A DNA stretch of 64,000 bases from Methanomassiliicoccales archaeon (GCA_035527755.1 DATKZX010000006.1:26057-90056), one strand, 5' to 3'. Shown: positions 10,653 through 64,000, counted from the stretch's first letter. The notes: generated from the letters alone by a model not told the origin. Translations and numbers: made by a program.

Positions 10653-10721
10653 CGGAATAATTTACGTGAATGGCATGCGACACTATTCTACTTTTGCCAA
10701 ATAATGGATAATGCTCGCGCC

Positions 10722-10763
10722 CATTGAAAAAAAATGAAAATGAAAGGCCGCGTTTAGCGGCCT
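10722..10763 (-). terminator. hairpin plus T-run downstream of the 149-aa gene
   Basis: The minus-strand transcript reads AGGCCGC-TAAAC-GCGGCCT followed by TTCATTTTCATTTTTTTT, starting 10 nt after the stop at 10773. Confidence 0.5.
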
Positions 10764-10772
10764 GAAAATGTT

Positions 10773-11222: not shown

Positions 11223-11232
11223 TTTTTTCACC

Positions 11233-21216: not shown

Positions 21217-21432
21217 ATGAACTCCCCTCCTGCCCGATGCCCGTACAAAAAAACAAATCGATGGACCCCGGGTTTCCATGGGGCTTTTGCCCTATGCTTT
21301 TTTGATTTATCGGCCGCTTTACATACCTTTCGGTTGTATGACCGAGGGATTGGAAGGACAGCTGTATGAAAAATGGTGAGGGGCTGGAAAAGGGGGGTCA
21401 TCGGCAAGGGACCCCCGTTCGCACCTGATCGA

Positions 21433-24400
21433 TTATTGGACCTTCTCCCCTCCCTCCTTCTCCGATCCCTCGCCCTCCTCTTTCTTACGCTTCACATAGT
21501 AGTATGTCAGAAGGACTAGCGCGACGATCAGAAGAATTATGTGCAGCCAAAGTACCCAATCGAACTGACCTCTCTCAGGGGCTTGTGGGGTGGTGATGAC
21601 CGGTTCGGAGGGAGCGCCGTCGCCGATGGTGTTGGTCGCTACCACAAAGTACGCGTATGCCTCCCCATTGATCAATCCCTCATCCGTGTAACCTGCGCTG
21701 GTTACGGAGGCCACCAGAACCGCTTCGCCGCTCTCGTTCACCCGGAACACCTTGTAGCCGGTTATCGGAGCGCCGCCATCGTCGGACGGAGTGGTCCAGT
21801 TCAGCAGGACCATCCCATCGCCAGGCACGGCGACCAGGTCGCTCGGGGCGGTGGCTACCGACTGCAGCGAGATGCTCGCTTCCGAGGAGGCCTCACTCTC
21901 ACCAGCAGAGTTGTTGGCGGTGACATAGTACCAGTAGGTGGAACCGGCTGATGCCTCATCGTCCATGAAGCTCAGCACATCGCCCACCTGTACCAGGAAC
22001 TCCTCCCCGCCGCTTTCCGTACCCCGGTAGATGGAGTAAACAACGATGGGTGATCCTCCGTCGTCCATTGGGGCTTCCCATGTCAGGACCACGAAGTCTT
22101 GTCCCCTTGTGGCCTCCAGGCCGAGCGGTGCGGAAGGCGTGCCTAATATGATCGCCGAGGCAAATTCGGACATGGCTCCCGCGCCTGCGAAGTTGACTGC
22201 CACCACGGAATACCAGTATTCCCGTCCCACCTCCACGGCGGAGTCGGCATAGGTCAGCACGCTGCCCACGGTGCTCAGGAGAACCTCCTCCCCTGGCGGT
22301 CCGCGATACACCTGAAAGTTGGTGATCTGGGAGCCCCCGTCGTTCTCCGGGGCTAGCCAGGTCAGGGTGATGGCCGACGCCCCAGCCACCGCCTGCATGG
22401 ACCGGGGTGCGCCAGGCACGCTTGACGGGGTCGCGGAGACCTTGTTAGAGGAAGGACCCTCACCGGCCTGGTTGACCGCGGTGATATAGTACCAGTAGGT
22501 CTGGCCGTTGGATAGTCCAGCGTCGATGAAGCTCAGTACGTTCCCAGTCTCAACCAGGAACTCCTCACTGCCTTCCTCCATTCCACGGTAAATGACATAA
22601 CCTATGATAGGCACGCCACCTTCGTGGGACGGAGCGGACCAGGCCAGTTCGATTTGGGAGTCCCCGGCCACCGCGATCAACACCGAGTCGTTCGAGGGAA
22701 CGGCCATGGGCATGGCGGAGACCTCGTTGGATGCCGCCCCAGACCCTTCAGAATTCACGGCCAAGACATAGTAGAAGTAGGTGGCTCCGTTCTGCACTTC
22801 GCTGTCGGTATGGTTCGTGCTAGTGACGGTGGTGAGATAAGCCTCCTCCCCGCTGACGTTGCCGCGGAATATCTCATAGCCTGTGATGACCGCACCTCCG
22901 TCCTCCGACGGGGAGGTCCAACCCAGGAACACGATGGAATCTCCGGCGACCGCCTGCAATTCCAGAGGTGCAGAGGGGGCCAACCGGATGATGGTGGTGG
23001 CCTCGTTGGAGGCGGGCCCCTCGCCCAGGGCGTTGACCGCTCTGACGTAGTACCAATATTCCTGTCCGACCTGCGCAGTGTCATCCTGATATGAGGTGAC
23101 CGCGCCGATCGTCGCCAGCAGCTCCTCTCCGCTGGCCTCTTCACCGCGGTAGACCATGTAGCCGCTGACGGGTGACCCACCATCATCCGTCGGGGCGGTC
23201 CAGGTGATGATTATGTTGGAGGGGTCGGCAGAAGCCTGCAGCTCCTGTGGTGCAGAAGGGACGGCTGCCGGGATCGCGGATACCTCATAGGATGCGGAGC
23301 CCGCACCCGCGATGTTGACGGCTTTGACTATGTAAAAGAACTCCATGCCGTTCTCCAATCCAGTATCGGTGTAGTTCGTCTCGCCAACGGAGGTCAGATA
23401 CGTTTCCTCACCGCTAGCATTCCCGCGATGTACTTCGTAGCCAGTCACCGAGGAACCTCCGTCCAGCGACGGAGCGGACCAGGTCAGTGATATCGCTTCG
23501 TCACTGGCCATTGCCATTAATGACAATGGTGAGGACGGAGGTATAACGATCACTGACGATGCCTCGTTGGATGCGACGCTTTCACCAGCACTGTTCACTG
23601 CGGTGACATAATAGTAGTATCCCACCCCTGGCTCGACCGATGTGTCCAGATAGGTGGTGACGTTGCCCAGTGTTATCAATAGAGACTTGTTGCCGCTGGT
23701 AACCCCGCGATATACCTCGTAGTTGGTTATGGCCGAACCGCCATTGGAGGCGGGAGGCGACCAGCCTAGGCCGATGTCCTCCATGCCTGCGATCGCCTGC
23801 AGGTCGGTTGGAGCGGAGGCATGGGTCATCGGCACGGCCGATACTTCGTTGGACGCGGCCCCTTCCCCGACCGCGTTGACAGCGGTGACGTAATACCAGT
23901 AAGTGACCCCATTGGTCAACCCCGCGTCTAGAAAGGATGTTGACCCGTAGACGGCCAACAGGGGTATCTCCCCGCCATTGGTCTGACCGCGATATAGTAC
24001 GTAGTATTGCACCGTTGAACCACCGTCATCGGTGGGCGCGTCCCAGGTGAGCATGGCCTGGCCGTTGCCAGGGATGACCTGCACATCCATTGGTTGCGAG
24101 GGCAAGGCCATTGGCACGACCGAAACCTCGTTGGACACGGTGCTCTCGCCGATGGCGTTCACTGCCACCACGTAGTACCAGTAGGTCTCTCCGTTGACCG
24201 CCGTGGTATCCTCGTACCATTGAACGTCGCCGATGGTGGTCAGCAAGGTCTCCCCACCGCTTTCGCTGCCGCGGTATACCTTATACCCGGTGATGGGAGA
24301 ACCGCCGTCCCAGGTCGGCTCTGTCCAGCTCAGAGTGACCTGGGCGTCCCCGGCGGCCGCCATGAGCTCCAGGGGAGTGGTCGGCGCCACCAGTACCTGG

Positions 24401-25482
24401 TGCGAGTATCTCAGGTTCATGTTGGTGACGTCATAGTAGGTGACATGGACGTTGTTCAGGGAATCGAGAGCCATGGAGGGATAGCGCCCCACGTTACCGG
24501 AGGTGTCCACCGCACCGAGGGTCCATCCGTCCCACGCGTCATTGGCATACCAGATGTCCCCGTTCAGGGAATCGTAGAACACCATATGCACTACGTCGTC
24601 CTCGTCCACGATGAGATCGGTATATATGCCGTTGATGGCTGTGTCACTGATCAGTTCGATTCTCCAGGCACCTTCCTCGTTGGTGGCGTACTTGAGGAAA
24701 CCGGTCGTGGCATCCCAGTAGCAGATGTGCGCCTTGTTCGTGGAGTCCACACCAATGGATGAATACACGCCCACCGTACCTGCGGTATCTATGGACGTAG
24801 TGGTCCAAACACCGCCTGGATTGGTCGCATAGCGTAGGTCCCCGTTGGTATTATCATAATAGGAGATGTGAACGATGTCGTTGTGGTCCACCGCAATGGA
24901 TGAGTACCAGCCCACGTCGTTGGTGCTGTCGACGACGGACAGTGCCCAACTTCCGCCGGAATTGGTGGCGTACTTGAGGTTTCCATTCGTGGCGTCGTAA
25001 TAACTGATGTGCGTGTTGCCGATCGAATCAAGGGCCAGGGAGGCGAATCGCCCCACGTCCCCAGCGGTGTCTATGCCGATCTTGACCCAGCCCCCGCCTT
25101 CGTTGGTGGCGTACTTGAGGTTGCTGTTCGGGTAATTGTAATAGACCATGTGGATGTAATCGTTAGCGTCGACGGCTAGGGAAGTCTCCTGCCCGGCATA
25201 TGCCCCTGTCTCCAGGGCGACGTTGGTCCAGACGCCGCTCTTATTGGTCGCGTACATCAGATAACCGTTGGTCGAGTCGTGGTAGCTGATGTGTACGAAA
25301 TCGTTGGAATCCAGTCCGATGGATGAATAGCTCCCGACGTCGTCCACGCTATAGATCGTATAAGTGCTCCAGGCGGGTAATGGTCCCGCCCCTGCCGCCC
25401 CCGGTGCGAGCACCGGAAGGACGGATATCAACATAATCGCTGCAATCAATGCGCATGCTAGTGACCTCTTAGTACCTTCCAT
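21433..25482 (-). CDS. large cell-surface protein: signal/anchor, 7 beta-propeller-like repeats, 10 FN3-like repeats, C-terminal TM anchor and charged tail
   Basis: ATG 25482 with GAGGGGG upstream. There are seven ~46-aa units ending (L/I)(K/R/M)YATN..G.W and ten ~92-aa units with the Y.VYRG...YWYYV.AVN..GES..S.E pattern. C-terminal WVLWLHIILLIVALVLLTYYYV is followed by KRKKEEGEGSEKEGGEKVQ. Confidence 0.85.
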   Translation of the reverse strand: MEGTKRSLACALIAAIMLISVLPVLAPGAAGAGPLPAWSTYTIYSVDDVGSYSSIGLDSNDFVHISYHDSTNGYLMYATNKSGVWTNVALETGAYAGQETSLAVDANDYIHMVYYNYPNSNLKYATNEGGGWVKIGIDTAGDVGRFASLALDSIGNTHISYYDATNGNLKYATNSGGSWALSVVDSTNDVGWYSSIAVDHNDIVHISYYDNTNGDLRYATNPGGVWTTTSIDTAGTVGVYSSIGVDSTNKAHICYWDATTGFLKYATNEEGAWRIELISDTAINGIYTDLIVDEDDVVHMVFYDSLNGDIWYANDAWDGWTLGAVDTSGNVGRYPSMALDSLNNVHVTYYDVTNMNLRYSHQVLVAPTTPLELMAAAGDAQVTLSWTEPTWDGGSPITGYKVYRGSESGGETLLTTIGDVQWYEDTTAVNGETYWYYVVAVNAIGESTVSNEVSVVPMALPSQPMDVQVIPGNGQAMLTWDAPTDDGGSTVQYYVLYRGQTNGGEIPLLAVYGSTSFLDAGLTNGVTYWYYVTAVNAVGEGAASNEVSAVPMTHASAPTDLQAIAGMEDIGLGWSPPASNGGSAITNYEVYRGVTSGNKSLLITLGNVTTYLDTSVEPGVGYYYYVTAVNSAGESVASNEASSVIVIPPSSPLSLMAMASDEAISLTWSAPSLDGGSSVTGYEVHRGNASGEETYLTSVGETNYTDTGLENGMEFFYIVKAVNIAGAGSASYEVSAIPAAVPSAPQELQASADPSNIIITWTAPTDDGGSPVSGYMVYRGEEASGEELLATIGAVTSYQDDTAQVGQEYWYYVRAVNALGEGPASNEATTIIRLAPSAPLELQAVAGDSIVFLGWTSPSEDGGAVITGYEIFRGNVSGEEAYLTTVTSTNHTDSEVQNGATYFYYVLAVNSEGSGAASNEVSAMPMAVPSNDSVLIAVAGDSQIELAWSAPSHEGGVPIIGYVIYRGMEEGSEEFLVETGNVLSFIDAGLSNGQTYWYYITAVNQAGEGPSSNKVSATPSSVPGAPRSMQAVAGASAITLTWLAPENDGGSQITNFQVYRGPPGEEVLLSTVGSVLTYADSAVEVGREYWYSVVAVNFAGAGAMSEFASAIILGTPSAPLGLEATRGQDFVVLTWEAPMDDGGSPIVVYSIYRGTESGGEEFLVQVGDVLSFMDDEASAGSTYWYYVTANNSAGESEASSEASISLQSVATAPSDLVAVPGDGMVLLNWTTPSDDGGAPITGYKVFRVNESGEAVLVASVTSAGYTDEGLINGEAYAYFVVATNTIGDGAPSEPVITTPQAPERGQFDWVLWLHIILLIVALVLLTYYYVKRKKEEGEGSEKEGGEKVQ
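21610..24390 (-). repeat. intragenic tandem array of ten FN3-like modules (about 275 bp each)
   Basis: Repeated protein blocks (GGS.(I/V)TGY.VYRG, YWYYV.AVN..GEG..SNE) are read ten times in the 21433..25482 translation. The copies are diverged, not identical. Confidence 0.8.
24397..25365 (-). repeat. intragenic array of seven ~46-aa propeller-like blades
   Basis: Blade ends LMYATNKSGVW, LKYATNEGGGW, LKYATNSGGSW, LRYATNPGGVW, LKYATNEEGAW, IWYANDAWDGW and LRYSHQV are each preceded by a (H/Y)(I/M/V).Y(Y/H)D strand. Confidence 0.7.
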
Positions 25483-25834
25483 ATCTGACCCCCTCAAAAT
25501 TGCATATTTATTAATGATTCTCTTTATCGATTATGATATTATAAAAACATTGAGATAACTATAATGGATTTGGTACAATCTTGAAACAAAAAACACGTGA
25601 GATGTTTGACCCACGCATACATCGGTCTGCTATATAGACCGTCCAATAAATATGTTAACATTGTTAACTAGAGGAACTATAAGAGAAAGGGATCGAGAGA
25701 CCGAACATTAGAAAATTATCAAAGGACACCGAGTCACAGTTCAATCTCGACATCGTTCCACAAAATATTGTCCTGCGACATATCAGTAAGGAATTTAACG
25801 GGGCATTCGCCCCTAAGTGGTTTGATATTTACGC

Positions 25835-37093: not shown

Positions 37094-37180
37094 TGGTGCG
37101 GGGGAAGGGATTCGAACCCTCGAACCACTAAGGACAGAATCTTAAGTCCTGCGCCGTTGGCCAAGCTTGGCTACCCCCGC
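37094..37180 (-). tRNA. tRNA-Leu (anticodon UAA), long variable arm, genomically encoded CCA
   Basis: The reverse complement reads GCGGGGGTAGCCAAGCTTGGCCAACGGCGCAGGACTTAAGATTCTGTCCTTAGTGGTTCGAGGGTTCGAATCCCTTCCCCCGCACCA. It has a 7-bp acceptor stem, anticodon loop CTTAAGA, a class II variable arm and the T-loop GGTTCGAATCC. Confidence 0.9.
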
Positions 37181-46182: not shown

Positions 46183-47106
46183 ATGAAGCTTTGGGATTTT
46201 AGTAGGGTCAAGGACGGTAAGGTCAGAATAGGGGATAAAATACGCCACCGTGTGGGCTTGGAGGATGGAAGTCAAGTATATTCCACCCTTTTCAGGTACG
46301 AACACAATGGGGCGCGTGGACATGAGATCGTCCTATCCACGTTCGGACCGGAGAACTACCGGGAGCTGTGCAATCTCACTTTCTACATGATCGATTCGCC
46401 TGGCGCCTGCGCTCAGGCGGCCAAGTTCCTGTCCGACCGAAACGTGGACATCCTGAACTCGGTCTCGGTCAGCATGACCTGCGGCATCTCCATGGTCTGG
46501 AAGATGCTGGTGGACCTTTCCTATTACGGAGACTCCACTCAGTTGACGGAGGACTTTGCGGCCATAAGGCGCACCAGCCCCACCGCCCTCTCGAAGGTGG
46601 AGGGACTTGAGATATCCACCTCCCACATCAGCGACCGCTATACCAAAGGTGTCAGTGGCCCTCAGTCCTCGAAGATAACGGCCAAGGCGCTGCGCAAGGT
46701 TTCTCGCTCCCCTTCACCGATAAAGGACGAGAGCTTCCCCATTCCAAAGGATTACCTGGACCAGCTGGAAGGCGTGACCGAGGGTACGCCGGTCATGATG
46801 GTGGGGGACGTGGACTCCTGGGTGCTATCGATGTCATTCCTGCCTGACGACTGTCTGATCGTGGAGATGTCCTTCGAGATCCCGGACAAGCCCGGCGCCA
46901 TTTACCGGGCCACGGAAGCGTTGGCAGCTCAGGACGTCAATCTACTGGCGGTCTCGTCAAGGGTGCTGGTATACGGGCAGAAGATGGCCCTGGACCTGGT
47001 GGCCGATCTGAGCCACGCCGGCGATCTGGACAAGGTGGTCGAGGCGATCTTGACCTCGTTGGGCGGGGAGTTCAAGCTCCGTTCCAAGGGCGTTGTGGTC
47101 TTTTGA
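46183..47106 (+). CDS. hypothetical protein: AbrB/SpoVT-like N-terminus plus two ACT-like domains
   Basis: DGKVRIGDKIRHRVGLEDGSQVYSTL (swapped-hairpin-like). Two beta-alpha-beta-beta-alpha-beta candidates: CNLTFYMIDSPGACAQAAKFLSDRNVDILN and VEMSFEIPDKPGAIYRATEALAAQDVNLLA. Domain calls are inference. Confidence 0.45.
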   Translation: MKLWDFSRVKDGKVRIGDKIRHRVGLEDGSQVYSTLFRYEHNGARGHEIVLSTFGPENYRELCNLTFYMIDSPGACAQAAKFLSDRNVDILNSVSVSMTCGISMVWKMLVDLSYYGDSTQLTEDFAAIRRTSPTALSKVEGLEISTSHISDRYTKGVSGPQSSKITAKALRKVSRSPSPIKDESFPIPKDYLDQLEGVTEGTPVMMVGDVDSWVLSMSFLPDDCLIVEMSFEIPDKPGAIYRATEALAAQDVNLLAVSSRVLVYGQKMALDLVADLSHAGDLDKVVEAILTSLGGEFKLRSKGVVVF

Positions 47107-47116
47107 GGCCTCAAAA

Positions 47117-47884
47117 ATGCTGATAGGCCGCAAGGTACTGGTGAAAGATGAGGTGACCTCCACCAACGAGGTCGCCAGGTCCCTGGCCCTGGAAGGTGAG
47201 CCAGAGGGGACCGTGGTCACGGCCGTCCGCCAGAGCGGAGGGAAAGGGAGGATGGGCCGCCAATGGGAATCACCTGAGGGCGGGGTCTATCTCTCGGTGA
47301 TCCTGCGGCCAGAGCTACCGGCCTCCGACCTTACATTACTAACGGTGATGTCCTGCCTGCCAGTGGCCCAGGCCATCGAGGAGGCCTGCCATTCCGTCCC
47401 GACCATCAAATGGCCGAACGACGTGAAGCTCAAGGGCCGCAAGGTCGCCGGGGTCTTGGTGGAAGCGTGCTACCGCGGCGGCGAGCCGCGATTTCTGATA
47501 TTGGGCATAGGGATCAACCTGAACACTGAACCTGGGCATCTCAGATCGCCGGAGGCGGGCAGCGTGGCCGACCTTTGCGGCAATAACCTGGACCAGGAAC
47601 ATTTCATGAACGTGTTGTTGTTCAAACTGGATGACATGTACGCCAAGTTCAGAAAGGGCGACCGGGACCTCTCCCTGTACGAAAGGTACAGCGAGTCCCT
47701 GGGCAAGGAGGTCGAGGTGAGGTTGGGGGACCAACACGTCAAAGGTAAGGCGATGCACCTGGATGCCGATGGGTCCCTGGTGCTGAGGTCCGATGACGGG
47801 ATGATATATCGAGCGACCTCCATACACGACGTGATCACATTGGACCGCGGACAGGTACGATTTGAAACGGGTAACGTTCATTAG
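47117..47884 (+). CDS. birA: biotin--[acetyl-CoA-carboxylase] ligase
   Basis: VTSTNEVA..., biotin-binding loop QSGGKGRMGRQWESPEGG, KWPNDV. There is no N-terminal HTH, so it is a group I ligase. I prefer ATG 47117, which lies after the upstream stop at 47106. Confidence 0.9.
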   Translation: MLIGRKVLVKDEVTSTNEVARSLALEGEPEGTVVTAVRQSGGKGRMGRQWESPEGGVYLSVILRPELPASDLTLLTVMSCLPVAQAIEEACHSVPTIKWPNDVKLKGRKVAGVLVEACYRGGEPRFLILGIGINLNTEPGHLRSPEAGSVADLCGNNLDQEHFMNVLLFKLDDMYAKFRKGDRDLSLYERYSESLGKEVEVRLGDQHVKGKAMHLDADGSLVLRSDDGMIYRATSIHDVITLDRGQVRFETGNVH

Positions 47885-47912
47885 CTAGGAGCACGAATAA
47901 AGGGGGAGCATC

Positions 47913-49460
47913 ATGGGCGAGGACAAGGTCAAGGAACTTCGGGAAATGAAGAAGCGGTCGAGGGCCGGCGGCGGAGCGGAGCGGGTCGAGATGCACCGCA
48001 TGCAGGGCAAGATGACCGCCCGGGAGAGAGTGGACACTCTGCTGGACCCCGGATCATTCGTTGAACTGGACCCCTTCGTTTCCCACCAGGCCTATCATTT
48101 CGGCATGGAGAAGCAGAAGATGCTTGGGGATGGCGTTGTCACCGGTCATGGGACCATCGAAGGTCAGCAGGTGTTCGTCTATGCCCAGGACTTCACCGTC
48201 TTCGCCGGATCGGTCGGTCGCATGCATGCCCAGAAGATCTGCAAGGTCATCGATCTGGCGATGATGACCGGCTGCCCCATCATCGCGTTGTTCGACTCGG
48301 GCGGGGCTCGTCTGCAGGAGGGCGTGGATTCACTTGCCGGCTACGGAGATGTCATGCTGAAACATACGCTCGCTTCGGGCGTCATACCGCAGATAGCCAT
48401 GGTCATGGGGCCTTGCGCTGGAAGCGGCGTCTACGCCCCGCATCTCTGCGACTTCGTGTTCATGGTGAAGGAAAAAGCGTGCATGTTCATGGTCAGCCCG
48501 GACGTCATCAAGGTGGTGCAGAAAGAGGAAGTGACCTTGGAAGAACTGGGTGGAGCTAGCGTCCACGCTTCCCATACTGGTTCGGCCCACTTCGTGGCCG
48601 AGGACGATATGGACTGCATCAAGCAGGTGCGCAGGCTGCTGGGCTATCTCCCATACAACAATCTGGAACAGCCGCGGAACAAAGCGACGGGCGATGATCC
48701 CGAGCGCCGTGAAGACTCCCTGGACACCATTATTCCAGAGGACCCCATGAAACCATACGATATGAAGGAGGTCGTCCGCAAGATCGTGGACAAGGGGGAG
48801 TTCCTGGAGGTGCATGAACTGTATGCACGTAACATTATCGTGGGCTTCGCCCGCATGGACGGGAGCACGGTCGGCATCGTGGCCAACCAGCCCATGGTAT
48901 TGGCCGGTACGTTGGATACCGGTTCCTCGCTCAAAGCGGCGCGCTTCGTGCGCTTCTGTGATGCTTTCAACATTCCCTTGATAACCTTGGTGGACGTGCC
49001 GGGCTACATGCCCAGCGTGGAGCAGGAGAACTCCTCTCTGCTTCGGGACGCCACCAAGCTTCTGTACGCTTACGCGGAGGCGAGCACCCCCAAGGTGACG
49101 GTCATCACCCGCAAGGCCATAGGCGGCGCCTACTGCGTCATGGGCTCCAAGCATCTGAGGACGGACATCAACCTGGCCTGGCCGACGGCCGAGATCGCCA
49201 TCGTTGGACCTGAGGGTGCCATCAACATCGTTTTCAAGCAGGAACTGATCATGGCCGATGACCCGCAGGAGAAGAGGGACGTGCTCATCTCAGAGTACCG
49301 CAAGCTGTACGCCTCGGCGTTCTTCTCTGCGGAGCGTGGGTATCTGGACGATATTATAGAGCCGAACAACACCCGCATGCGGTTGATCGAAGCCCTGACC
49401 ATGCTGGACCGCAAGCGGGAGAACCGCCCGGCCAAGAAGCACGGCAATATGCCGCTGTGA
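47913..49460 (+). CDS. acyl-CoA carboxyltransferase (propionyl-CoA carboxylase beta / methylmalonyl-CoA carboxyltransferase 12S-type)
   Basis: Two crotonase-like CT halves, DSGGARLQEG, VMGPCAGSGVY, and the C-terminal GGAYCVMG pattern. 515 aa. Confidence 0.9.
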   Translation: MGEDKVKELREMKKRSRAGGGAERVEMHRMQGKMTARERVDTLLDPGSFVELDPFVSHQAYHFGMEKQKMLGDGVVTGHGTIEGQQVFVYAQDFTVFAGSVGRMHAQKICKVIDLAMMTGCPIIALFDSGGARLQEGVDSLAGYGDVMLKHTLASGVIPQIAMVMGPCAGSGVYAPHLCDFVFMVKEKACMFMVSPDVIKVVQKEEVTLEELGGASVHASHTGSAHFVAEDDMDCIKQVRRLLGYLPYNNLEQPRNKATGDDPERREDSLDTIIPEDPMKPYDMKEVVRKIVDKGEFLEVHELYARNIIVGFARMDGSTVGIVANQPMVLAGTLDTGSSLKAARFVRFCDAFNIPLITLVDVPGYMPSVEQENSSLLRDATKLLYAYAEASTPKVTVITRKAIGGAYCVMGSKHLRTDINLAWPTAEIAIVGPEGAINIVFKQELIMADDPQEKRDVLISEYRKLYASAFFSAERGYLDDIIEPNNTRMRLIEALTMLDRKRENRPAKKHGNMPL

Positions 49461-49468
49461 GGGATGAA

Positions 49469-50977
49469 ATGAAGATAAAGATCACCGACACCGTGCTGCG
49501 CGACGCCCACCAATCCCTCCTGGCGACCAGGATGAGGACAGAGGACATGTTGCCTGCCGCCGCCATGCTGGACGAGATAGGCTACTGGTCGGTGGAGATG
49601 TGGGGCGGGGCGACGTTCGATACCTGCCTCCGCTTTCTGCGCGAGGACCCATGGGAGCGCATCACCAAGCTCAAGAAGGCCATGCCCAACACCCCCTTCC
49701 AGATGCTTCTGCGGGGGCAGAACATAGTGGGCTATCGTCATTACTCCGACGACATCCTGGAGAAGTTCGTCAAGAACGCCAAGCGCCGGGGCATAGATGT
49801 CTTCCGCATCTTCGACGCCTTGAACGATCACCGCAACATGCAGATGGCCATGCGCTGCGTGAAGAAGGTGGGAGGAGTGGTCGAGGCCAGCATCTCCTAC
49901 ACCATATCTCCGGTCCATACCATCGAAGGTTACATCAAATTCGCCCGGAAACTTCAGGACATGGGCGCCGACACCATCTGCATCAAGGATATGGCCGGCA
50001 TGTTGGCCCCGATGGACGCCTATGAGCTGGTCAAACAGCTGCGTGAGGAGATCGGTCTGCCGGTCCATATGCACTGCCACGCCACCTCCGGAATGGTCAT
50101 GGGCACCTACATGAAGGCGATCGAGGCCGGGGCGGAGATAGTTGATACGGCGATCTCCAGCTTGAGCCTGGGCACCTCGCAGACGCCCACGGAGGCCGTG
50201 GTTGCCATGCTCAACGGGACGGAATACGATACCGGCCTGGACCTGAAGAAGCTGAAGGAGATAGCCGAGTACTTCAAGACCGTGCGGGTCAAGTACCATG
50301 CGTTCGAGAGCGATTTCACTGGCATCGACACCAACGTCCTGGTGTATCAGATCCCCGGCGGAATGATGTCCAACCTGGCATCCCAGATGAGAGAGGCCAA
50401 GAAGGAGGACAAGATGGCCGAGGTGCTGGAGGAGGTACCGCGGGTGAAGGCGGAACTGGGACACGTTCCTTTGGTAACCCCAACCTCGCAGATAGTGGGC
50501 ACCCAGGCCGTACTGAACGTCATAACCGGCGAGCGTTACAAGATGGTCACCAACGAGACCAAGAACCTGGTCAGGGGGCTCTATGGCAAGACCCCGGCCG
50601 ATATCTCCCCGGAGATCAGGAGGAAGATCATCGGGGACGAAAAGCCCATCACCGTTCGCCCGGCCGATCTTCTGGAGCCGGAGTTCGATAAGCTTTGCAA
50701 GGAGGTCGAGGAGTACGCCTGCAACGAGAAGATGGTCTGCTCCGAGGAGGACGTGCTCTCTTACGCGCTCTTCCCCCCGGTGGCGTTGGACTACTTCAAG
50801 TACCGCCAGATGATGGAGAAGGGCGTCAACCTGAAGGAGCTGGCGGCGGTCGCCGTGCTCTACATGCGGTCCACCGAGAGGCACGCGTCCAACAAGATGT
50901 CCTCGGGCGGGAGCATGGACGCCTGGAAGCTGGTGGCCCGTAAAGAGGCCGTCGGCAAAGGGGGGTGGCCACTGTGA
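49469..50977 (+). CDS. oxaloacetate/pyruvate carboxyltransferase (5S-type; PycB/OadA-like) without a biotinyl domain
   Basis: MKIKITDTVLRDAHQSL..., an HMGL-like TIM barrel (CIKDMAGML, HMHCHATSGM). It ends without an AMKM lipoyl/biotinyl domain. ATG 49469 follows GAGGGATGAA. Confidence 0.85.
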   Translation: MKIKITDTVLRDAHQSLLATRMRTEDMLPAAAMLDEIGYWSVEMWGGATFDTCLRFLREDPWERITKLKKAMPNTPFQMLLRGQNIVGYRHYSDDILEKFVKNAKRRGIDVFRIFDALNDHRNMQMAMRCVKKVGGVVEASISYTISPVHTIEGYIKFARKLQDMGADTICIKDMAGMLAPMDAYELVKQLREEIGLPVHMHCHATSGMVMGTYMKAIEAGAEIVDTAISSLSLGTSQTPTEAVVAMLNGTEYDTGLDLKKLKEIAEYFKTVRVKYHAFESDFTGIDTNVLVYQIPGGMMSNLASQMREAKKEDKMAEVLEEVPRVKAELGHVPLVTPTSQIVGTQAVLNVITGERYKMVTNETKNLVRGLYGKTPADISPEIRRKIIGDEKPITVRPADLLEPEFDKLCKEVEEYACNEKMVCSEEDVLSYALFPPVALDYFKYRQMMEKGVNLKELAAVAVLYMRSTERHASNKMSSGGSMDAWKLVARKEAVGKGGWPL

Positions 50978-57681: not shown

Positions 57682-57689
57682 TTTATATT
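57682..57689 (+). promoter_or_regulatory. TATA-box-like element upstream of acsB
   Basis: TTTATATT lies in the 80-bp divergent spacer after the P5CDH start (57605). It overlaps the TTG at 57688 that the ORF track uses as the start. Confidence 0.35.
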
Positions 57690-57783
57690 GGCGGGAACTC
57701 GATGGTACCTTATCGAGCTCGGAGAGGTTCCCTTGACCCATACCCACGATAGATCCGGACCGTTGGCAGCTGGCGATATCCTT

Positions 57784-60699
57784 ATGATCGCACGAACGGA
57801 GCGGAAGCGCTTGCTTACCATGCTGGAAAACGTGGAAGGTGGAAACGTGGTAAGGGAATCGGTGCGTCGGGTGGTTGAGGGAACGAGCCCGGACGACCTT
57901 TGGACCGCCGACCTGGGAAAGATATTGGACCTGGTTAACCGTGACCTGGCCAAAGCGACGGGTTGCGAACCGATGGCTTTGAGGGAGAAGAGGACCTGGG
58001 AGCAGGCTGGGCTACTGGCACCGTTGACGGACGTTCCTCGAGGAGAGGCCTACGATCTGTTGCTGGGTGCCCGCGAATCCTTAGCCTGCTCCATCCTCAA
58101 TTGGTGCTTGAGGGCGCTAAAGGCGTGCCCTGAAGAGATAGATGCCTTGCCGGAACTGCGACAACAGTTGCGGGAGGGAGAGGTCCGAGGATCGCTCCTG
58201 GAAGAGCACGGAGGGACGTGGTGCCTTCGCACCACGGACGATGGCCCGGTACAGCTCGAAGGTCGTCCGGCCCAGGTAATCGCCGCCTTCATGGACATGC
58301 GCCGAGAATTAGCCAGGGAATTAGGTTCGGCGACGGCCCATCTACCCCTGGCCATGAGCACCGGGGATCTGCCCTTGGCCATCGGCCAAGCGTTGATGGG
58401 GTTCCCTGTGCTGCTGACAGACCTCACCCTCGATCCCCTGGCGAAGGAGTTCCTCACCAACACCATGCGAGATCTCTTCCAGGGATCGCTCCTGAGCAGC
58501 GAGGATGACCTGAACAGGGAGATGGAGCGCCGCCGATGGTTGAGCGGGCTGCCCCATCGATACGACCCTCCGTCCCCGGTCGGGGTCAGTAACGTGCAGA
58601 TCATCGCCTCGGGCTTCCAGGGAGCGGAGCTGCTGTTGGCTCTGGCCATGATAGCCGTTCTCTCGACGATCCAGAGGAGGGGAGATGTCCCGGTCGAGTA
58701 TCCTGAGACGGGTTACTCCCTGCCATGCATCCTGGGTTGGGACGGGACGGAGGTCGGCAATGCCAGGGAACTGCTGGACGTGGTGAGAAGGTATTCCAAC
58801 CTGCCAAAGGAGAGGAGCCTGGCCGCGGCGCTGACAGCCGGGCGCTCGGTCCTGATCGCCGTCGAGGCCTTGGAAGCGTTGCGCTATCTGGACGGGGACC
58901 CACACATCGGCTCCTCCACCGTGGGCTTCATCCCGGACAAGGTCCTCAGAGAGCTGGGACTGGCCTTCGTGGACGATACCATCCCCGGAGCGGCCGTGCT
59001 CATGGGCATCCCACATGACCGCAGGCAGCTGGTGACCACCGTCAGAGAGCTGCAGGCGCGGGGATTGCTCATCATGGCCGCGGACGAGGTGGTGCAGGTA
59101 CTGCAGGAGAACGAGGTGCAGATGGGGCTGGAGATGATGCTCTATCCGCTGGGTAACTTCACCCAGCTGGTGCATTCATTGGATTTCCTGACCCGGGCCG
59201 CGCTTTCGTTCGGGGGGGTGCAGAAGGGGGACGCGGAACGGTTGTCCGCCTACTTGGCCAAGAGACCTAAGGCGTTCGTGCTGCACTTTGGACCTCTGGA
59301 CTCCTGCCGGGCGGCCATGGCGCTGGCGGCGCTGACGCACGGGGTACCCATCATCACCGACCAGGAGGTGGAGGGCGTGCCGGACCTTCTGTTCCACAAG
59401 GAACCCCAACATATGCTCCAGGGGGGTCTGGAATCACGAGACATTCGCGTGGCGGTGACCATGGTGGACATCCCCGTGCCTTTCGGACCGGCGTTCGAAG
59501 GGGAGACCGTCCGTCGACCGGACACCTATCTGGAAGCGGGTGGGGGACGGACTCCGTCCTTTGAGCTTCTACGCAGGAGATCGGAGGACGAGGTCCGCGA
59601 CGGAGAGGTTCTCGTCCTGGGACCGGAGGTGGATCAGATGGCCGAAGGCTCACAGACGCCCATGGCCATACTGGTGAACGTCTTCGGCAAACGCATGCAG
59701 GAGGATTTCGAATCGGTCATGGAAAGGCGGATACACCTCTACCTGAACTTCGCCGAGGGAGTATGGCACACCGGGCAGCGCAACATGAATTGGCTAAGAA
59801 TTAGCAAGAAAGCACGTAGGGCGGGTTTCCGCCTGGAGCATCTGGGACGCATCTTGGTCACCAAATTGAAGGAGGAGTTCGGTAACATCGTCTCCAGAGT
59901 ACAGATCATCATAATCACCGATGAGAAGGAGATCGAGCGCCGTCTGCCCGAGGCCCTGAGGGTATATCAGGAGAGGGAGGAGCGCATGGCCGGACTGACC
60001 GACGACAGCGTGGACACCTTCTATTCCTGCCTCATGTGCCAGTCGTTCGCCCCGGACCATGTGTGCGTGATAACGCCGGAGCGTCTGGGGCTCTGCGGGG
60101 CCATCAACTGGCTGGACGCTAAGACCGGCAAGGAGATCGTTCCGTCCGGACCCAACCAGCCCATAGCAAAGGGGGAGCCAGAGGACCTGGAGAAAGGATC
60201 TTGGAAGGGAGTGAACGAGGCGGTGACGGCCTTGACCCGCGGAAAGATATCCCGTTTCTGCGCCTACAGCATGATGGAGGACCCCATGACCTCCTGCGGA
60301 TGTTTCGAGTGCATCGCGGCCATGAGCCCGGACATGCAGTCGGTGATAGTGGTGAGCCGGGAGTTCCCAGACATGACCCCATTGGGCATGAAGTTCTCCA
60401 CCTTGGCCGGTTCCATCGGCGGGGGCCGGCAGACCCCGGGGTTCATCGGTATCGGTCGTCGTTACCTGATCAGTAAGAAGTTCATAACCGGGGACGGTGG
60501 GTTCCTGCGCATATCCTGGATGCCTTCCTCTTTGAAGAACAGCATGAGGGAAGAGCTTATTAATAGGGCCACGGAATTGGGAATGCCAGACTTTCTGGAC
60601 AGGGTGGCGGACGAGACGACCGTCACCGACGCGGAAGGACTGATGAACTGGATGATCAAGGTGGACCACCCCGCCTTGAGAATGCCCTCGTTGCTTTGA
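57784..60699 (+). CDS. acsB: acetyl-CoA synthase, bacterial AcsB architecture, with an additional unassigned N-terminal extension
   Basis: A-cluster ligands CLMCQSFAPDHVCVITPERLGLCG (ORF codons 781/784/793/803, from 60028) and the Cys-Gly-Cys in MTSCGCFEC (60295-60303). N-terminal-domain matches to Moorella AcsB (YPLGNFTQLVHS, VPFGPAFEGE, WHTGQRNMNWLR). The ORF is open from 57688. The first in-frame ATG is 57784. The canonical-length start would be ATG 58522. Confidence 0.9.
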   Translation: MIARTERKRLLTMLENVEGGNVVRESVRRVVEGTSPDDLWTADLGKILDLVNRDLAKATGCEPMALREKRTWEQAGLLAPLTDVPRGEAYDLLLGARESLACSILNWCLRALKACPEEIDALPELRQQLREGEVRGSLLEEHGGTWCLRTTDDGPVQLEGRPAQVIAAFMDMRRELARELGSATAHLPLAMSTGDLPLAIGQALMGFPVLLTDLTLDPLAKEFLTNTMRDLFQGSLLSSEDDLNREMERRRWLSGLPHRYDPPSPVGVSNVQIIASGFQGAELLLALAMIAVLSTIQRRGDVPVEYPETGYSLPCILGWDGTEVGNARELLDVVRRYSNLPKERSLAAALTAGRSVLIAVEALEALRYLDGDPHIGSSTVGFIPDKVLRELGLAFVDDTIPGAAVLMGIPHDRRQLVTTVRELQARGLLIMAADEVVQVLQENEVQMGLEMMLYPLGNFTQLVHSLDFLTRAALSFGGVQKGDAERLSAYLAKRPKAFVLHFGPLDSCRAAMALAALTHGVPIITDQEVEGVPDLLFHKEPQHMLQGGLESRDIRVAVTMVDIPVPFGPAFEGETVRRPDTYLEAGGGRTPSFELLRRRSEDEVRDGEVLVLGPEVDQMAEGSQTPMAILVNVFGKRMQEDFESVMERRIHLYLNFAEGVWHTGQRNMNWLRISKKARRAGFRLEHLGRILVTKLKEEFGNIVSRVQIIIITDEKEIERRLPEALRVYQEREERMAGLTDDSVDTFYSCLMCQSFAPDHVCVITPERLGLCGAINWLDAKTGKEIVPSGPNQPIAKGEPEDLEKGSWKGVNEAVTALTRGKISRFCAYSMMEDPMTSCGCFECIAAMSPDMQSVIVVSREFPDMTPLGMKFSTLAGSIGGGRQTPGFIGIGRRYLISKKFITGDGGFLRISWMPSSLKNSMREELINRATELGMPDFLDRVADETTVTDAEGLMNWMIKVDHPALRMPSLL

Positions 60700-60710
60700 G
60701 GTGTATGTAA

Positions 60711-61661
60711 ATGGCGAACGTACCGTTGCCCAAGGAGAAATGGACAGGTTCCATAGGAGAGCTGGAACTGGGGAACCCCCAGGATAAGGGAGGTTCCCGT
60801 CGCCCGGTGAAGCTGGGTGGCAATCGAGGCATGCCCTTCCTGTCCTTCGAGGACGGCGAGCGTCGGATGATCGCCATGGCTGGACTGGTGGCCGACTCCC
60901 TGGAGGATGTGCCTCAGCCGGTACGGGACGCTTTCGGTGACGACGCTGAGGACCCGGTGCGCTGGGCGAGAGCGTGGGCGGCCCGCGGCGCCGACCTGAT
61001 ATGTCTTCGTCTGACATCCACCAACCCTGAGGAAGGGGACGCGTCCCCGGAGAGCGCGGCGGACACAGTCATGGCGGTCCTGAAGGCGGTGGACCTGCCG
61101 CTGATCGTCTACGGCAGCGGGCACGAGGAGAAGGACTCCAAGGTGCTGGAGAAAGTGGGCGAGAGGGCCAGGGGCGAGCGTCTGCTTCTGGGACACGCGG
61201 AGGAGAGCGCCTATAAGTCCGTGGCCGCCGCGGCCATGGCCAACGGCCACGCGGTGATCGGGTTCTCCAACCTGGACATCAACCTTGCCAAACAGATCGT
61301 GATTCTGCTCACCGATTTCGGGGTGGGTAAGGGCGACATCATGATCGACCCGCTCATGGCCGCCCTGGGCATGGGACTGGAATATTCCTACTCGGTCAAC
61401 GAACGCATCAGGATATCGGCGCTCTCGGGCGACAGCATGCTGCGGGTGCCCATGATCTGTGACTGCACCTCCGCCTGGAAAGCTCGTGAGGCCACGGACG
61501 ACGTTCCCCATGCCGGCGATACCCTGGAGAGAGGGATCTGGTGGGAGGCGACCACTGCCTTGGCCGCCCTGCTGTCGGGCGCGGACGTCCTGGTGCTCGG
61601 TCACCCCGAGGCCATGGAGCTCGCTCGGACGGCCGTTTCGGACCTGGGGGGTGAGGACTGA
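60711..61661 (+). CDS. acsD: corrinoid iron-sulfur protein small subunit (AcsD-type)
   Basis: 316 aa TIM-barrel subunit: KGGSRRPVKLGG, ADLICLRL, DLPLIVYGSG, LLLGHAEESAYKS, IDPLMAALGMGLEYSYSVNERIR. Collinear with Moorella AcsD as I recall it. Confidence 0.85.
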   Translation: MANVPLPKEKWTGSIGELELGNPQDKGGSRRPVKLGGNRGMPFLSFEDGERRMIAMAGLVADSLEDVPQPVRDAFGDDAEDPVRWARAWAARGADLICLRLTSTNPEEGDASPESAADTVMAVLKAVDLPLIVYGSGHEEKDSKVLEKVGERARGERLLLGHAEESAYKSVAAAAMANGHAVIGFSNLDINLAKQIVILLTDFGVGKGDIMIDPLMAALGMGLEYSYSVNERIRISALSGDSMLRVPMICDCTSAWKAREATDDVPHAGDTLERGIWWEATTALAALLSGADVLVLGHPEAMELARTAVSDLGGED

Positions 61662-62986
61662 TGGCCACGGCGATCGAGATTTTCAAACACCTGCCCAAGA
61701 AGAACTGCGGGGAATGCAAGTACCCCACCTGCCTGGCCTTCGCCATGCAGCTGGCCAACAACAAGGCCAAGCTCGATGACTGCCCCCACATGAGCGAGGC
61801 CGGTCGGAACGCCTTGGCCAGCTCATCCGCTCCGCCCATACGGTTAGTGCGCATCGGCACGGGAAGGAACATAGTGGAGATGGGGGACGAGACGGAACTG
61901 TACCGTCACGACAAGCGTTTCTTCCACCCTACCGCCTTCGCGCTGCGGGTAAGCGATGACCTGAGCATCGAAGAGCTGGAGAAGAAGGTCGATCACGCCC
62001 GCTCCTTGCACTTCGAGAGGGTGGGTCAGGTGCTCAAGTTCGACATCGTGGAGGTAGAATGCCGATCCGGAGACGGAGTGAGGTACGTACAGACCCTCGA
62101 CCGTGTCTCCGAGTTGGTAGACTGGCCACTGGTGCTGCGCTGCCGCGACCCGGTCATAATGTCCGCCGCCGCCAACCGGATGAGGGAACGGAGGCCCCTG
62201 TTGCACGGTGCCGACCCTGACAACATCAAGGAGATGGTGGTGACGTCCAAAAGCTCGGGATGCCCGCTGGTCCTCTGCTCTGATGACCTGGGGAAGCTGG
62301 CCGACATGGTAGAAATAGCTCGCAAAGAAGGCGTGGAGGACCTGGTGCTTGACCCGATGCCCGGGAACATGAAGGACATGCTGGAGCGGTGCACGATCAT
62401 CCGGCGCAGCGCCATCCGCAAGACCTTCCGTGGACTGGGGTACCCTATCTACATGGGCATGCCCGTTGGGAAGAACGGCATGCTGATGGCCCTGACAGCG
62501 GTCATGAAGTACGGCAGCCTGCTCTCGTTCGAAGAGATGCCATCATCACAGGCACTGCCGCTCCTGGTACTGAGACAGAACATCTACACAGACCCTCAGG
62601 TGCCCATACAGGTCAAGCCTGATCTGTACCCGGTGAACAACCCCGGGGCTGATGCTCCGATCCTCTTCACCACCAATTTCTCGCTCACCTATTTCACCGT
62701 GCTCTCGGACATCGAGAAGAGCAAGGTGCCTGTATGGCTGCAGGTGGTGGACACGGAGGGTCTCTCCGTGCTCACGGCCTATTCCGCGGGAAAGCTGACC
62801 GCCGACGGTGTGAGGAACGCGCTCGAGGCCAGCGGCGCTAACGGTAGATCGAACAGAGGCGTGCTGGTGATCCCGGGCATGGTGGCCCGGATGAGCGTCA
62901 AATTGAACGAGAGCACCGGACTGCAGATCGTCGTCGGACCCAAGGAATCCTCCGGCCTGCCCAAGTTCCTGAGGTCCATGAGCTGA
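61661..62986 (+). CDS. acsC: corrinoid iron-sulfur protein large subunit (AcsC-type)
   Basis: N-terminal [4Fe-4S] motif CGECKYPTCLAFAMQLANNKAKLDDC (CX2CX4CX16C). 441 aa. The start overlaps the acsD stop by 1 nt (TGATG). Confidence 0.85.
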   Translation: MATAIEIFKHLPKKNCGECKYPTCLAFAMQLANNKAKLDDCPHMSEAGRNALASSSAPPIRLVRIGTGRNIVEMGDETELYRHDKRFFHPTAFALRVSDDLSIEELEKKVDHARSLHFERVGQVLKFDIVEVECRSGDGVRYVQTLDRVSELVDWPLVLRCRDPVIMSAAANRMRERRPLLHGADPDNIKEMVVTSKSSGCPLVLCSDDLGKLADMVEIARKEGVEDLVLDPMPGNMKDMLERCTIIRRSAIRKTFRGLGYPIYMGMPVGKNGMLMALTAVMKYGSLLSFEEMPSSQALPLLVLRQNIYTDPQVPIQVKPDLYPVNNPGADAPILFTTNFSLTYFTVLSDIEKSKVPVWLQVVDTEGLSVLTAYSAGKLTADGVRNALEASGANGRSNRGVLVIPGMVARMSVKLNESTGLQIVVGPKESSGLPKFLRSMS

Positions 62987-63059
62987 ACCCAGTGTTTTTT
63001 TAGAAACCATTATAATTTTCGTCCATCATGTGGGCCCATTTCGGACCTACGGTGAATCG

Positions 63060-64000
63060 ATGCAACAAGGACCATATGACCCAAATCAAGGCGGCCCTCC
63101 GCAATATCAGGGACCGCAGCCGGGACCACAGCAATGGCCCCAGCAAAACCCTCCGAACCAATATCAGCAGGATCAACCGAACCAGTACCAGCAAGGGCCG
63201 AACCAGCAGTATCAGCCCTACCCGCCGTACCAACCGCCCAAGAAGAAACGCAACATGAAGTTGGTGGTGGCCGCGGTCGCCGTCGTGGCGATACTTCTGG
63301 TCGCCTCCATGGCCGTGCTGTTCTGGCCCACTGACGCCAACGGTGATGATCTTCCGGCCCATGAGGTCATACCGAAGATCATCGACATCGGCAGCTTGGT
63401 GACCGCCGCCACTGGCACCATCGGGTCGCTCGGCGGATCGATCTCCGTGAACAACCTGGCTAGCGCCGTGAACGGACTACGGATAGAGGTGCCCCAGGGA
63501 GCACTGGAATCTCCGGTGGACTTTGACATCAGATCCGCCGTGGTCAATGCCGCCCAGGGACTGCCTGACACCGGAAAGATCGTCAGCCGGATGATATCCA
63601 TTGAAACGGACGGAACGAGCGATTGGGATGTCTTCAGGATGTTCGATAAGGTGCTCACTGTCACCCTGCCATACGATGACTCGTTGGTCACCGATGAAGA
63701 AGGGGTGCGTTTCTATCAATATGACGCGGAGAACCAGAAGCTGGAACCGACCGGGTTCCTGTGGCAGGACATGATCGCCAATACCATCACCTTCAATTCC
63801 GCCACCTTCTCCAAGTTCGTGGCCGTCGAATTGGCCATGAGCATATTCGAGGACATGAACTCCAGCTTCGCCGTGGACACTGGCTTCAGACCGAATAACG
63901 ATGGATGGTTCATTCCGAACTACGGCTCCTACCTGGAGAACGGTGGACTATGCCTAGGCATGGTCTCCTACGCCAAATGGTACTACACCTATCACAATAC
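63060..64000 (+). CDS. hypothetical single-pass membrane protein with a Pro/Gln/Asn/Tyr-rich N-terminal region (3' end beyond the window)
   Basis: Own translation from ATG 63060 (GGTGA upstream): MQQGPYDPNQGGPPQYQGPQPGPQQWPQQNPPNQYQQDQPNQYQQGPNQQYQPYPPYQPPKKKRN, then MKLVVAAVAVVAILLVASMAVLFW, then a soluble domain that is still open at 64000. Confidence 0.6.
   Translation, partial: MQQGPYDPNQGGPPQYQGPQPGPQQWPQQNPPNQYQQDQPNQYQQGPNQQYQPYPPYQPPKKKRNMKLVVAAVAVVAILLVASMAVLFWPTDANGDDLPAHEVIPKIIDIGSLVTAATGTIGSLGGSISVNNLASAVNGLRIEVPQGALESPVDFDIRSAVVNAAQGLPDTGKIVSRMISIETDGTSDWDVFRMFDKVLTVTLPYDDSLVTDEEGVRFYQYDAENQKLEPTGFLWQDMIANTITFNSATFSKFVAVELAMSIFEDMNSSFAVDTGFRPNNDGWFIPNYGSYLENGGLCLGMVSYAKWYYTYHN

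Follow-up and report, generated by a model that had tools for sequence, protein, structure and literature searches.

Genes for AcsB and AcsCD occur without a carbon monoxide dehydrogenase (CODH) in Dehalococcoides mccartyi, whose Wood-Ljungdahl pathway is incomplete (Zhuang et al. 2014, as relayed in PMC6113397) and in which a core-MetE is also found (PMC7005905). In the model put forward for Dehalococcoides, acetyl-CoA is cleaved to a methylated corrinoid iron-sulfur protein (CoFeSP) and free carbon monoxide (CO) (PMC6113397, PMC7005905); neither of these two papers mentions a vestigial CODH on the Dehalococcoides AcsB, which is a statement about the literature and not about the protein. We have analyzed a stretch of 64,000 nucleotides from a Methanomassiliicoccales archaeon (GCA_035527755.1 DATKZX010000006.1:26057-90056; referred to here as the window, with positions counted from its first letter) that carries an acsB gene coding for acetyl-CoA synthase (ACS) with an in-frame N-terminal extension. 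We find it highly probable that this extension is a translated, conserved and catalytically dead remnant of CODH, derived from a CODH-AcsB fusion. Like the Dehalococcoides system, the window has ACS and CoFeSP genes without an associated CODH, and the gene clusters of its relatives link a MetE-like gene to them; unlike in Dehalococcoides, where the absence of CODH is established genome-wide, the system described here is known from 64 kb and a set of related loci, and its host belongs to a methyl-reducing methanogen lineage. Our searches of the searchable literature, that on Methanomassiliicoccales genomics included, turned up no account of a Methanomassiliicoccales AcsB with a fused or vestigial CODH, and a July 2026 survey of ACS architectures lists AcsB in Methanomassiliicoccales and mentions neither fusion nor vestige.

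The described protein to which the window enzyme can be compared most directly is AcsB of Moorella thermoacetica (PDB 1OAO/1MJG, NF040764). The window core aligns with it end to end and has all of the A-cluster cysteines and the A1-A3 layout; the window protein differs in its additional ~270-285 N-terminal residues, in having valine, leucine and methionine at the positions of A110, A222 and A265, and in having no adjoining acsA. Residues 12-727 of the Moorella enzyme (1OAO_C, 729 aa) align with residues 296-1001 of the window open reading frame (ORF) with an expect value (E) of 4.5e-215. The A-cluster cysteines are ORF residues 781, 784, 793 and 803 (CLMCQSFAPDHVCVITPERLGLC begins at 781) and the Cys-Gly-Cys is 870-872, exactly as an earlier note on this DNA had claimed, and the offset of ~275 from Moorella numbering that the same note gave holds at the A-cluster (275) and becomes 284 at the N terminus. 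Pfam matches are to PF18537 at 330-401, PF03598 at 595-749 (E 1.8e-61) and PF19436 at 760-1002 (E 5.7e-113); over residues 311-1002 the NCBIfam equivalog NF040764 reaches 886.2 bits, where its cut-off is 800. The A1 domain, the feature that separates AcsB from archaeal CdhC, is present (ORF 296-590 aligned with Moorella 12-314). Judged from its sequence, then, the window gene is a bacterial-type acetyl-CoA synthase with domains A1-A3 and an intact A-cluster, every AcsB-defining feature that we looked for having been found. The Pfam and NCBIfam models of AcsB start to match at ORF residue ~304-311, and the canonical enzyme would begin at about residue 285 (nucleotide ~58540); the position of ~58522 proposed earlier is near to this, although the ATG on which it was based is an isoleucine codon in the closest orthologue.

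We take the upstream ~270-285 codons to be a genuine, conserved part of the acsB gene. A single frame of 1003 codons is open on the plus strand from 57688 to 60699, with no stop before the enzyme, as had been noticed before. The chance of 278 stop-free codons, calculated from the base composition of the region, is ~6e-5, and of the five remaining frames of 57688-58521 four have 6-17 stops and the fifth, minus frame 1, has one. GC content at codon positions 1, 2 and 3 is 0.65/0.46/0.70 in the extension and 0.61/0.43/0.79 in the core; the pattern in the extension is that of coding sequence, in agreement with the codon structure that the earlier note had read there. A search with the full-length protein recovered 22 proteins of 932-1009 aa (query coverage 88-99%, identity 69-94%), from Methanomassiliicoccales where named, and a scan of GTDB, with one genome per species representative, added 15 further loci, all from Methanomassiliicoccales or from Methanomassiliicoccus metagenome-assembled genomes (MAGs), in which extension and AcsB lie in one unbroken frame without exception (15/15; 937-1020 aa where the contig is complete). 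With the extension alone as query, a word-indexed protein search gave no match and an exhaustive phmmer search of 1.84 billion representatives gave just two short fragments (E 1.8e-5 and 3e-4); because homologues surfaced only with the full-length query, these negatives reflect the clustering and indexing of the databases, not missing relatives. Sixteen aligned extensions are 42-56% identical to that of the window (90% for the closest) and share 47 invariant columns. Measured against L003, the locus of a 94%-identical orthologue, the ratio of nonsynonymous to synonymous substitution rates (dN/dS) is 0.166 for the first 150 codons of the extension and 0.146 for the next 125, compared with 0.077 in the A1 part of the core and 0.061 in A2-A3, at a dS of 0.26-0.45 that is unsaturated. 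On these values the extension is under purifying selection, about two-fold more relaxed than the core. The comparison of orthologues that the earlier note had proposed thus comes out in favor of codons that are coding and kept by selection, in 15 species genomes and at a dN/dS of 0.15-0.17.

Translation of the window acsB likely starts at TTG 57733. A Shine-Dalgarno-like GGAGAGGT lies upstream of this codon at 57721-57728, and the codon is kept in L003 and is the called start of P0001, the 94%-identical orthologue. The TATA-like box that had been pointed out just upstream is present (Table 1) and overlaps TTG 57688, which favors a downstream start; in the alignment, the starts of several other orthologues lie 8-11 codons farther 5', and for this reason TTG 57688 is a possible start as well. 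The first in-frame ATG, 57784, to which the earlier note had drawn attention, is ATA (Ile) in L003; with ATG 58522 likewise unconserved in the orthologue, neither is a conserved start, and TTG 57733 is the likelier one.

The extension had been thought to be of a type that matches no known domain, and standard domain libraries do come up empty: neither Pfam nor NCBIfam has a match in residues 1-278, PF03063 has none at E <= 1 either there or in the whole window protein, and when PDB sequences were searched with the extension profile (hmmsearch), chance-level matches alone came up (an MCM protein, a response regulator) and no CODH. The homology to CODH is seen only by profile-profile and fold comparison. 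A link to the fused relatives is nevertheless within reach of BLASTP, which aligns window residues 207-292 with residues 556-656 of the fused protein P0025 (E 2e-7), a stretch that comprises the end of the CODH module and the junction. With hhalign, the extension family matches the CODH part of the fusions at 98% probability (E 1.3e-13), and, in a comparison with a profile of 120 diverse CODHs from archaea and bacteria, residues 204-284 match the final ~95 residues at 94.5% (E 8e-8), the query having been cut at RRRW so that no AcsB residues were included. An AlphaFold2 (AF2) model of the extension, built from the 16-sequence alignment, has a mean predicted local distance difference test score (pLDDT) of 85.7 and a predicted template modelling score of 0.85, and shows a helical part (residues 28 to 162) and, after it, the strands and helices of an alpha/beta part (169 to 286). 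The best 50 matches listed by Foldseek for this model in the PDB are all Ni,Fe-CODH, most of them over ~107 columns with a root-mean-square deviation of 2.0-3.0 Å and with Foldseek probabilities of 0.85-1.00 (1.00 for nearly all), and by this comparison the model has the Rossmann-like fold of the CODH C-terminal domain. Homology to Ni,Fe-CODH (CooS/AcsA), specifically to its C-terminal domain, extends over residues ~160-285. The profile and structure searches that had been suggested for residues 1-280 therefore find CODH for the C-terminal part only, its ~125 residues being a CODH C-terminal domain and not, as had been supposed, a domain of unrecognized type.

What this remnant lacks is everything needed for catalysis by CODH. 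In comparison with Ni,Fe-CODH (C. hydrogenoformans CODH-II, R. rubrum CooS, PF03063), the extension has no Pfam match and none of the C-, B- and D-cluster motifs, the C-cluster ligand set that we tested, His and five Cys, being represented by HGHNP, GICCTGNE, DYQCIMP, AGCNN, TGCSA and GSCVDN; the middle domain is without a counterpart, and ~350 CODH residues are missing in all. There is no CxxC-type motif (B-/D-cluster) in residues 1-285. Because its five cysteines are scattered, only one of them being nearly invariant and none standing in a cluster-type motif, the extension cannot bind B, C or D clusters. It is in function no member of the CODH family, while its C-terminal half is still CODH-homologous and comes from a fused CODH-AcsB.

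The proteins that would represent the ancestral state are found among the relatives. The full-length search also recovered fused CODH-AcsB proteins of 1358-1373 aa that have a complete PF03063 (E 7e-162 in P0025). The fusions P0025, P0026, P0029 and P0044 (1099-1373 aa, from Thermoplasmata/Methanomassiliicoccales-like MAGs) have a core that is orthologous to that of the window protein, at 53-55% identity, and the same acsB-acsD-acsC order, and their E-x-ERRRW junction and last ~95 CODH residues are recognizable in the window protein; they differ from it in having the full PF03063, all cluster motifs, and CooT/CooC nearby. In an alignment with the intact fusions, which retain the C-cluster cysteine motifs of the C-terminal domain (AGCNN, TGCSA and GSCVDN) together with the ANHEKAV segment, these three motifs and the NHEKAV lysine motif are seen to be deleted in the window family. 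The locus L004 reads ACT-domain gene, CODH-AcsB (1373 aa), acsD, acsC; the opposite strand carries genes for a CooC-like ATPase, a 345-aa protein and RACo, and CooT and a second CooC are upstream. The loci L001, L005, L022 and L023 share a core of acsB (970-1006 aa), acsD, acsC, a CooC-like gene and a gene of ~340 aa, and the order of the acs genes is the same in L001, L003, L004, L005, L021, L022 and L023. The window has acsB-acsD-acsC in common with L001, L004, L005, L022 and L023, from which it follows that the extension occupies exactly the position of the CODH module.

Intermediates in the loss of the module, and the states before and after it, can be seen in other relatives. P0024 retains every segment of the C-terminal CODH domain and has all three cysteine motifs replaced, and in P0036, P0033 and the window family the segments that hold these motifs are progressively deleted; P0024 still matches CODH over residues 111-285 (CODH 448-651, E 1.7e-8) and P0033 over 61-280 (CODH 392-652, E 8.6e-8). 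At L025 (6646-10809) acsA (668 aa, ending at 8652) and acsB (718 aa, starting at 8653) are unfused with a 0-bp gap, so that loss of one stop codon would fuse them. At L021 (1773-4995) a 716-aa AcsB follows straight after the ACT gene, without any CODH module. Decay has also gone the other way: P0061 (832 aa) consists of a CODH joined to no more of ACS than the ~160 N-terminal residues of the AcsB A1 domain, and at L024 (10001-12544, CP070767.1) a separate ORF of 176 aa, with only PF18537 of AcsB, comes after an intact CODH of 670 aa. The relatives thus form a series of separate acsA and acsB, fused, decayed and deleted forms. A piece next to the junction is kept in both directions of decay, which fits structural interdependence across the former CODH-ACS interface. 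In a neighbor-joining tree of AcsB cores, which carries no support values, the window family and P0024 are sister to the intact fusions and the L021 type; P0033 and P0036 branch outside, suggesting more than one independent decay. Taken together with the sequences, we infer that the extension arose by fusion and subsequent decay. The ancestor would have had acsA directly abutting acsB, the two would have fused into one CODH-ACS polypeptide, and in the Methanomassiliicoccus-like lineage the CODH part would have shed the Fe-S and middle domains along with all of its C-cluster ligands, leaving an alpha/beta stub of ~125 residues at the junction, preceded by a helical module of ~140 residues.

Where this helical half comes from is a separate matter. 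The AF2 model places six helices between residues 28 and 162 with a pLDDT of mostly 80-98, and the module has 20 invariant columns among 16 homologues, the invariant charged or aromatic residues being D70, D75, E100, W104, E105, R129, E130, E163 and R167. An hhalign comparison of the N-terminal 205 residues with CODH gave E 0.13, the profile of 120 CODHs gave no second match, adding P0033 to the profile brought no gain for the N-terminal half, and Foldseek with the AF2 model of the helical module alone returned generic helical bundles (E > 0.7). P0033 aligns with window residues 131-333 (E 6e-12), which barely touches the helical half. The one hint of a link to CODH, an indirect one, is a weak collinear match of P0033 residues 43-157 to the CODH helical domain (138-251, E 0.005). 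Window residues 81-170 pair non-significantly with P0033 80-164 (hhalign E 0.002, 13%), and the same pairing recurs in a MAFFT alignment, which sets RDLAKATGCEP and REKRTWEQAGLLAP of the window against QTARSLGMDP and KIRSQALRDLGLIP of P0033. It is plausible that the helical half is a scrambled piece of the CODH helical domain, and it may also be newly evolved sequence.

If the built-in CODH is dead, the question arises of how the synthase handles CO. We take A110, A222 and A265 of Moorella ACS to be positions that line its CO tunnel, and Tan et al. are reported to have engineered A110C, A222L and A265M in 2005 to block it. The aligned residues in the window protein are V392 (58861-58863), L501 (59188-59190) and M544 (59317-59319). 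Read across 41 homologues, the pattern is that window-type proteins (23/23) have Val, Leu or Ile at the 222 position and Leu or Met at the 265 position, whereas Moorella and eight comparison AcsBs (six intact fusions, P0034, which has an adjoining acsA, and P0035, included as a close homologue of P0034) have Ala in both places, apart from a single Thr at the 265 position. The bulky residues at the A222 and A265 positions suggest a closed CO tunnel. We propose that the remnant, which would be unable to interconvert CO and CO2, is kept as a folded, non-catalytic scaffold packed beside A1, where it would probably cover the former CODH-ACS interface, that the internal CO tunnel is closed, and that ACS and CoFeSP (AcsCD) would work without a fused CODH, exchanging CO with solvent. 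It is probable that the synthase now works without its built-in CO supplier; the mechanism of scaffold and closed tunnel could well be right, and could slightly more easily be wrong.

A number of observations weigh against the account given so far. Foldseek E-values are marginal (7e-3 and weaker), even though the best matches listed are uniformly CODH. Just half of the extension is demonstrably CODH-derived, the helical module having no significant match to CODH, AcsB or PDB folds. Translation of the extension is a prediction from the nucleotide sequence, and its start codon is ambiguous between 57688 and 57733. Proteins of the L021 type show that the remnant is dispensable in principle. The three proteins P0024, P0027 and P0032 are without CODH function yet have Ala at all three tunnel positions, and the bulky residues are therefore no obligatory result of CODH loss and instead a trait of the window family; that these positions line the tunnel is, moreover, an assumption on our part. 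Finally, the case that no separate CODH exists elsewhere in the genome comes from a contig listing, which is weak evidence.

We considered whether the extension might be something other than a translated CODH remnant. The in-frame ATG at 58522 would give an AcsB of canonical length (725 aa), and the protein might begin there, with the upstream frame being a neutral leftover or a pseudogenized leader. However, this ATG (M279) lies within the conserved motif E[MIV]ERRRW at a variable residue, where many orthologues have Ile or Val (the 94%-identical one has Ile), the frame is open in all 17 vestigial-type loci that we scanned, the extension is predicted to fold with high confidence, and the dN/dS values, at the dS given above, are incompatible with neutral drift, so that such a start is very improbable. 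An internal duplication of the prismane-like A1 domain of AcsB has in its favor that A1 is described as related to the prismane/CODH fold (PMC13370988), and a copy of it could give a CODH-like Foldseek match. We consider this more improbable still, given that hhalign yields E 0.23 against the A1 profile and 0.33 against the AcsB core compared with 8e-8 against CODH, that no ACS chain is identifiable in the best 50 Foldseek matches listed, apart from two 6ytt chains of CODH length (~630), and that what is matched is the last 95 CODH residues, including E-x-ERRRW, placed as in the fusions. The origin of the extension in a CODH that was once fused to AcsB is thus favored, and two further possibilities concern what became of that remnant.

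One is that a separate CooS/CdhA encoded elsewhere supplies or removes CO, with the remnant mediating or tolerating its docking, in which case the carbonyl branch would be complete. Our view covers just 64 kb of the genome, and stand-alone CODHs are common in Thermoplasmata MAGs. Nevertheless, there is no CODH in the window, and around the 17 vestigial-type loci the scan, which reached out ~10 kb or, at contig ends, less, showed none either; among the 120 closest CODHs listed, none is on the long contigs (1.95 Mb and 1.89 Mb) that carry P0004 and P0007, the weak evidence referred to above. The remnant also fills the place where a CODH would sit, and bulky residues stand at the positions aligned to A222 and A265. 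We regard a CODH acting in trans as distinctly unlikely. The other possibility is that the remnant has been exapted, as a docking site (for CoFeSP, a MetE-like methyltransferase or ferredoxin) or as a CO gate, with the helical half being a lineage-specific invention. The helical half evolves under much the same constraint as the CODH-like half (dN/dS 0.166 vs 0.146), has many invariant charged and aromatic residues, is predicted by AF2 to fold confidently, and has no detectable relative, all of which would suit such a role. On the other hand, no search points to a partner or ligand, P0024, P0033 and P0036 have other N-terminal sequences before the same CODH stub, and the L021-type proteins do without any extension; exaptation is in our judgment unlikely, if less so than a CODH in trans. 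The earlier note had expected a new domain to mean a different partner or a different regulation: an altered relation to CODH fits what we see, but the extension is a leftover of CODH and not an added domain that recruits a partner.

On our favored reading, of a non-catalytic remnant on an ACS that works by itself, a further gene of the relatives' clusters deserves attention. Every cluster type has, flanked by the CooC-like and RACo genes, a gene of 338-346 aa without a Pfam family. Its product matches NF002119 (archaeal core methionine synthase, PRK00957) weakly (E 2.4e-5, 23.7 bits against a cut-off of 258) and contains the invariant motifs HCCGNTDWP and TPQCGLGG, which are similar to the motifs that supply zinc ligands in MetE-type thiol methyltransferases. 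A possible role for this product is that of a MetE-like methyl-corrinoid:thiol methyltransferase standing in for AcsE. We did not find this gene inside the window. In L006, the nearest relative (90% identical), a CooC-like ATPase, a 346-aa gene and RACo are just downstream, the 346-aa gene lying ~1.6 kb beyond the expected end of acsC. As the nearest relative keeps the CooC-like, RACo and MetE-like genes, the system may, by analogy, be comparable to AcsB/AcsCD of Dehalococcoides. A bolder proposal, which we think is somewhat more likely to be wrong than the mechanism above, is that the Methanomassiliicoccus-like clade as a whole combines an uncoupled ACS, a pseudo-enzyme module, a filled tunnel (A-to-V/L/M), MetE-like thiol methyl transfer and a functional helical half; as a composite it is doubtful. 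If it were true, ACS-CoFeSP would work together with the MetE-like enzyme instead of AcsE and CODH, acetyl-CoA would exchange methyl groups with a thiol, either homocysteine or coenzyme M, and the helical half would be a docking or gating element rather than debris.

The dead CODH also bears on annotation. Database labels call these genes 'acetyl-CoA decarbonylase/synthase complex subunit alpha/beta', and with such labels metabolic reconstructions can count CODH/ACS as present despite a dead CODH part, so the remnant changes what can be inferred of the carbon metabolism of environmental Methanomassiliicoccales, for example their potential for autotrophy or for an aceticlastic metabolism. The relatives provide a graded natural series in one gene neighborhood, including the reciprocal CODH with an ACS A1 stub, and this series shows which parts of the CODH-ACS interface persist once either catalytic partner is gone. 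They also provide natural variants at the positions aligned to Moorella A222 and A265, and the system as a whole offers a testable archaeal parallel to the CODH-less acetyl-CoA cleavage of Dehalococcoides. The coordinates of the features of the locus are given in Table 1.

Table 1. Features of the acs locus in the window, and the MetE-like candidate gene of related loci (in coordinates of those loci)
Feature	Position	Strand	Basis and remarks
TATA-like box TTTATATT	57682..57689	+	Possible archaeal promoter element for acsB; direct sequence reading; kept in L003; putative function
Most likely start codon, TTG	57733..57735	+	Alternative TTG at 57688-57690
N-terminal helical module (ORF ~25-160)	57760..58167	+	AF2; invariant columns; dN/dS 0.17 against L003
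Vestigial CODH C-terminal alpha/beta domain (ORF ~161-285)	58168..58542	+	BLASTP, hhalign, Foldseek (about 107 columns, root-mean-square deviation 2.3 Å); without metal-cluster ligands
AcsB linker/N-terminal helix and A1 domain (ORF ~286-590)	58543..59457	+	PF18537; alignment to 1OAO_C; holds V392, L501 and M544
AcsB A2-A3 catalytic domains and stop codon	59458..60699	+	PF03598, PF19436, NF040764; Cys motifs; dN/dS 0.06
acsD, corrinoid Fe-S protein small subunit	60711..61661	+	PF03599 (E 2.9e-36)
acsC, corrinoid Fe-S protein large subunit	61661..62986	+	PF03599 (E 5e-96); PF04060 (E 3.5e-14; N-terminal Fe-S motif)
Gene of 338-346 aa	L001 16463-17503 (-); L004 17183-18220; L006 15401-16429; L022 15730-16746; L023 7774-8793		

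The surroundings of the acs genes vary among the loci. An aldehyde dehydrogenase gene (531 aa, PF00171; 56010-57605, minus strand) lies between a response-regulator gene and acsB in the window and in L003; L001 lacks it there and has a gap of 131 bp. Genes for an ACT-domain protein, a biotin ligase, a carboxyltransferase and an HMGL/PYC_OADA subunit (46183-50974, plus strand) lie upstream of the acs genes in the window, L001 and L005, and the ACT gene is directly 5' of acsB in L004, L021, L022 and L023. The unfused acsA and acsB of L025 adjoin MTHFR, CooT/CooC and NiFe hydrogenase genes. Downstream of acsC, an ORF that continues past the end of the window (63016-64000, plus strand) codes for a Gln/Pro-rich, low-complexity N terminus followed by one predicted transmembrane helix, and replaces the 167-aa and CooC-like genes found after acsC in L001.

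Further away in the window, a radical SAM protein of 458 aa that has an HMPTM-type zinc ribbon adjoins a protein of the URO-D family (376 aa) on the minus strand at 9279-12363; this family includes the MtaA/MtbA methylcobamide:coenzyme M methyltransferases. Two large predicted surface proteins, one of 699 aa with PKD domains and one of 1354 aa with nine fibronectin type III repeats, are encoded at 19183-25497 (minus strand). The sole RNA gene detected in the window is a tRNA-Leu (anticodon TAA) at 37094-37180 on the minus strand.

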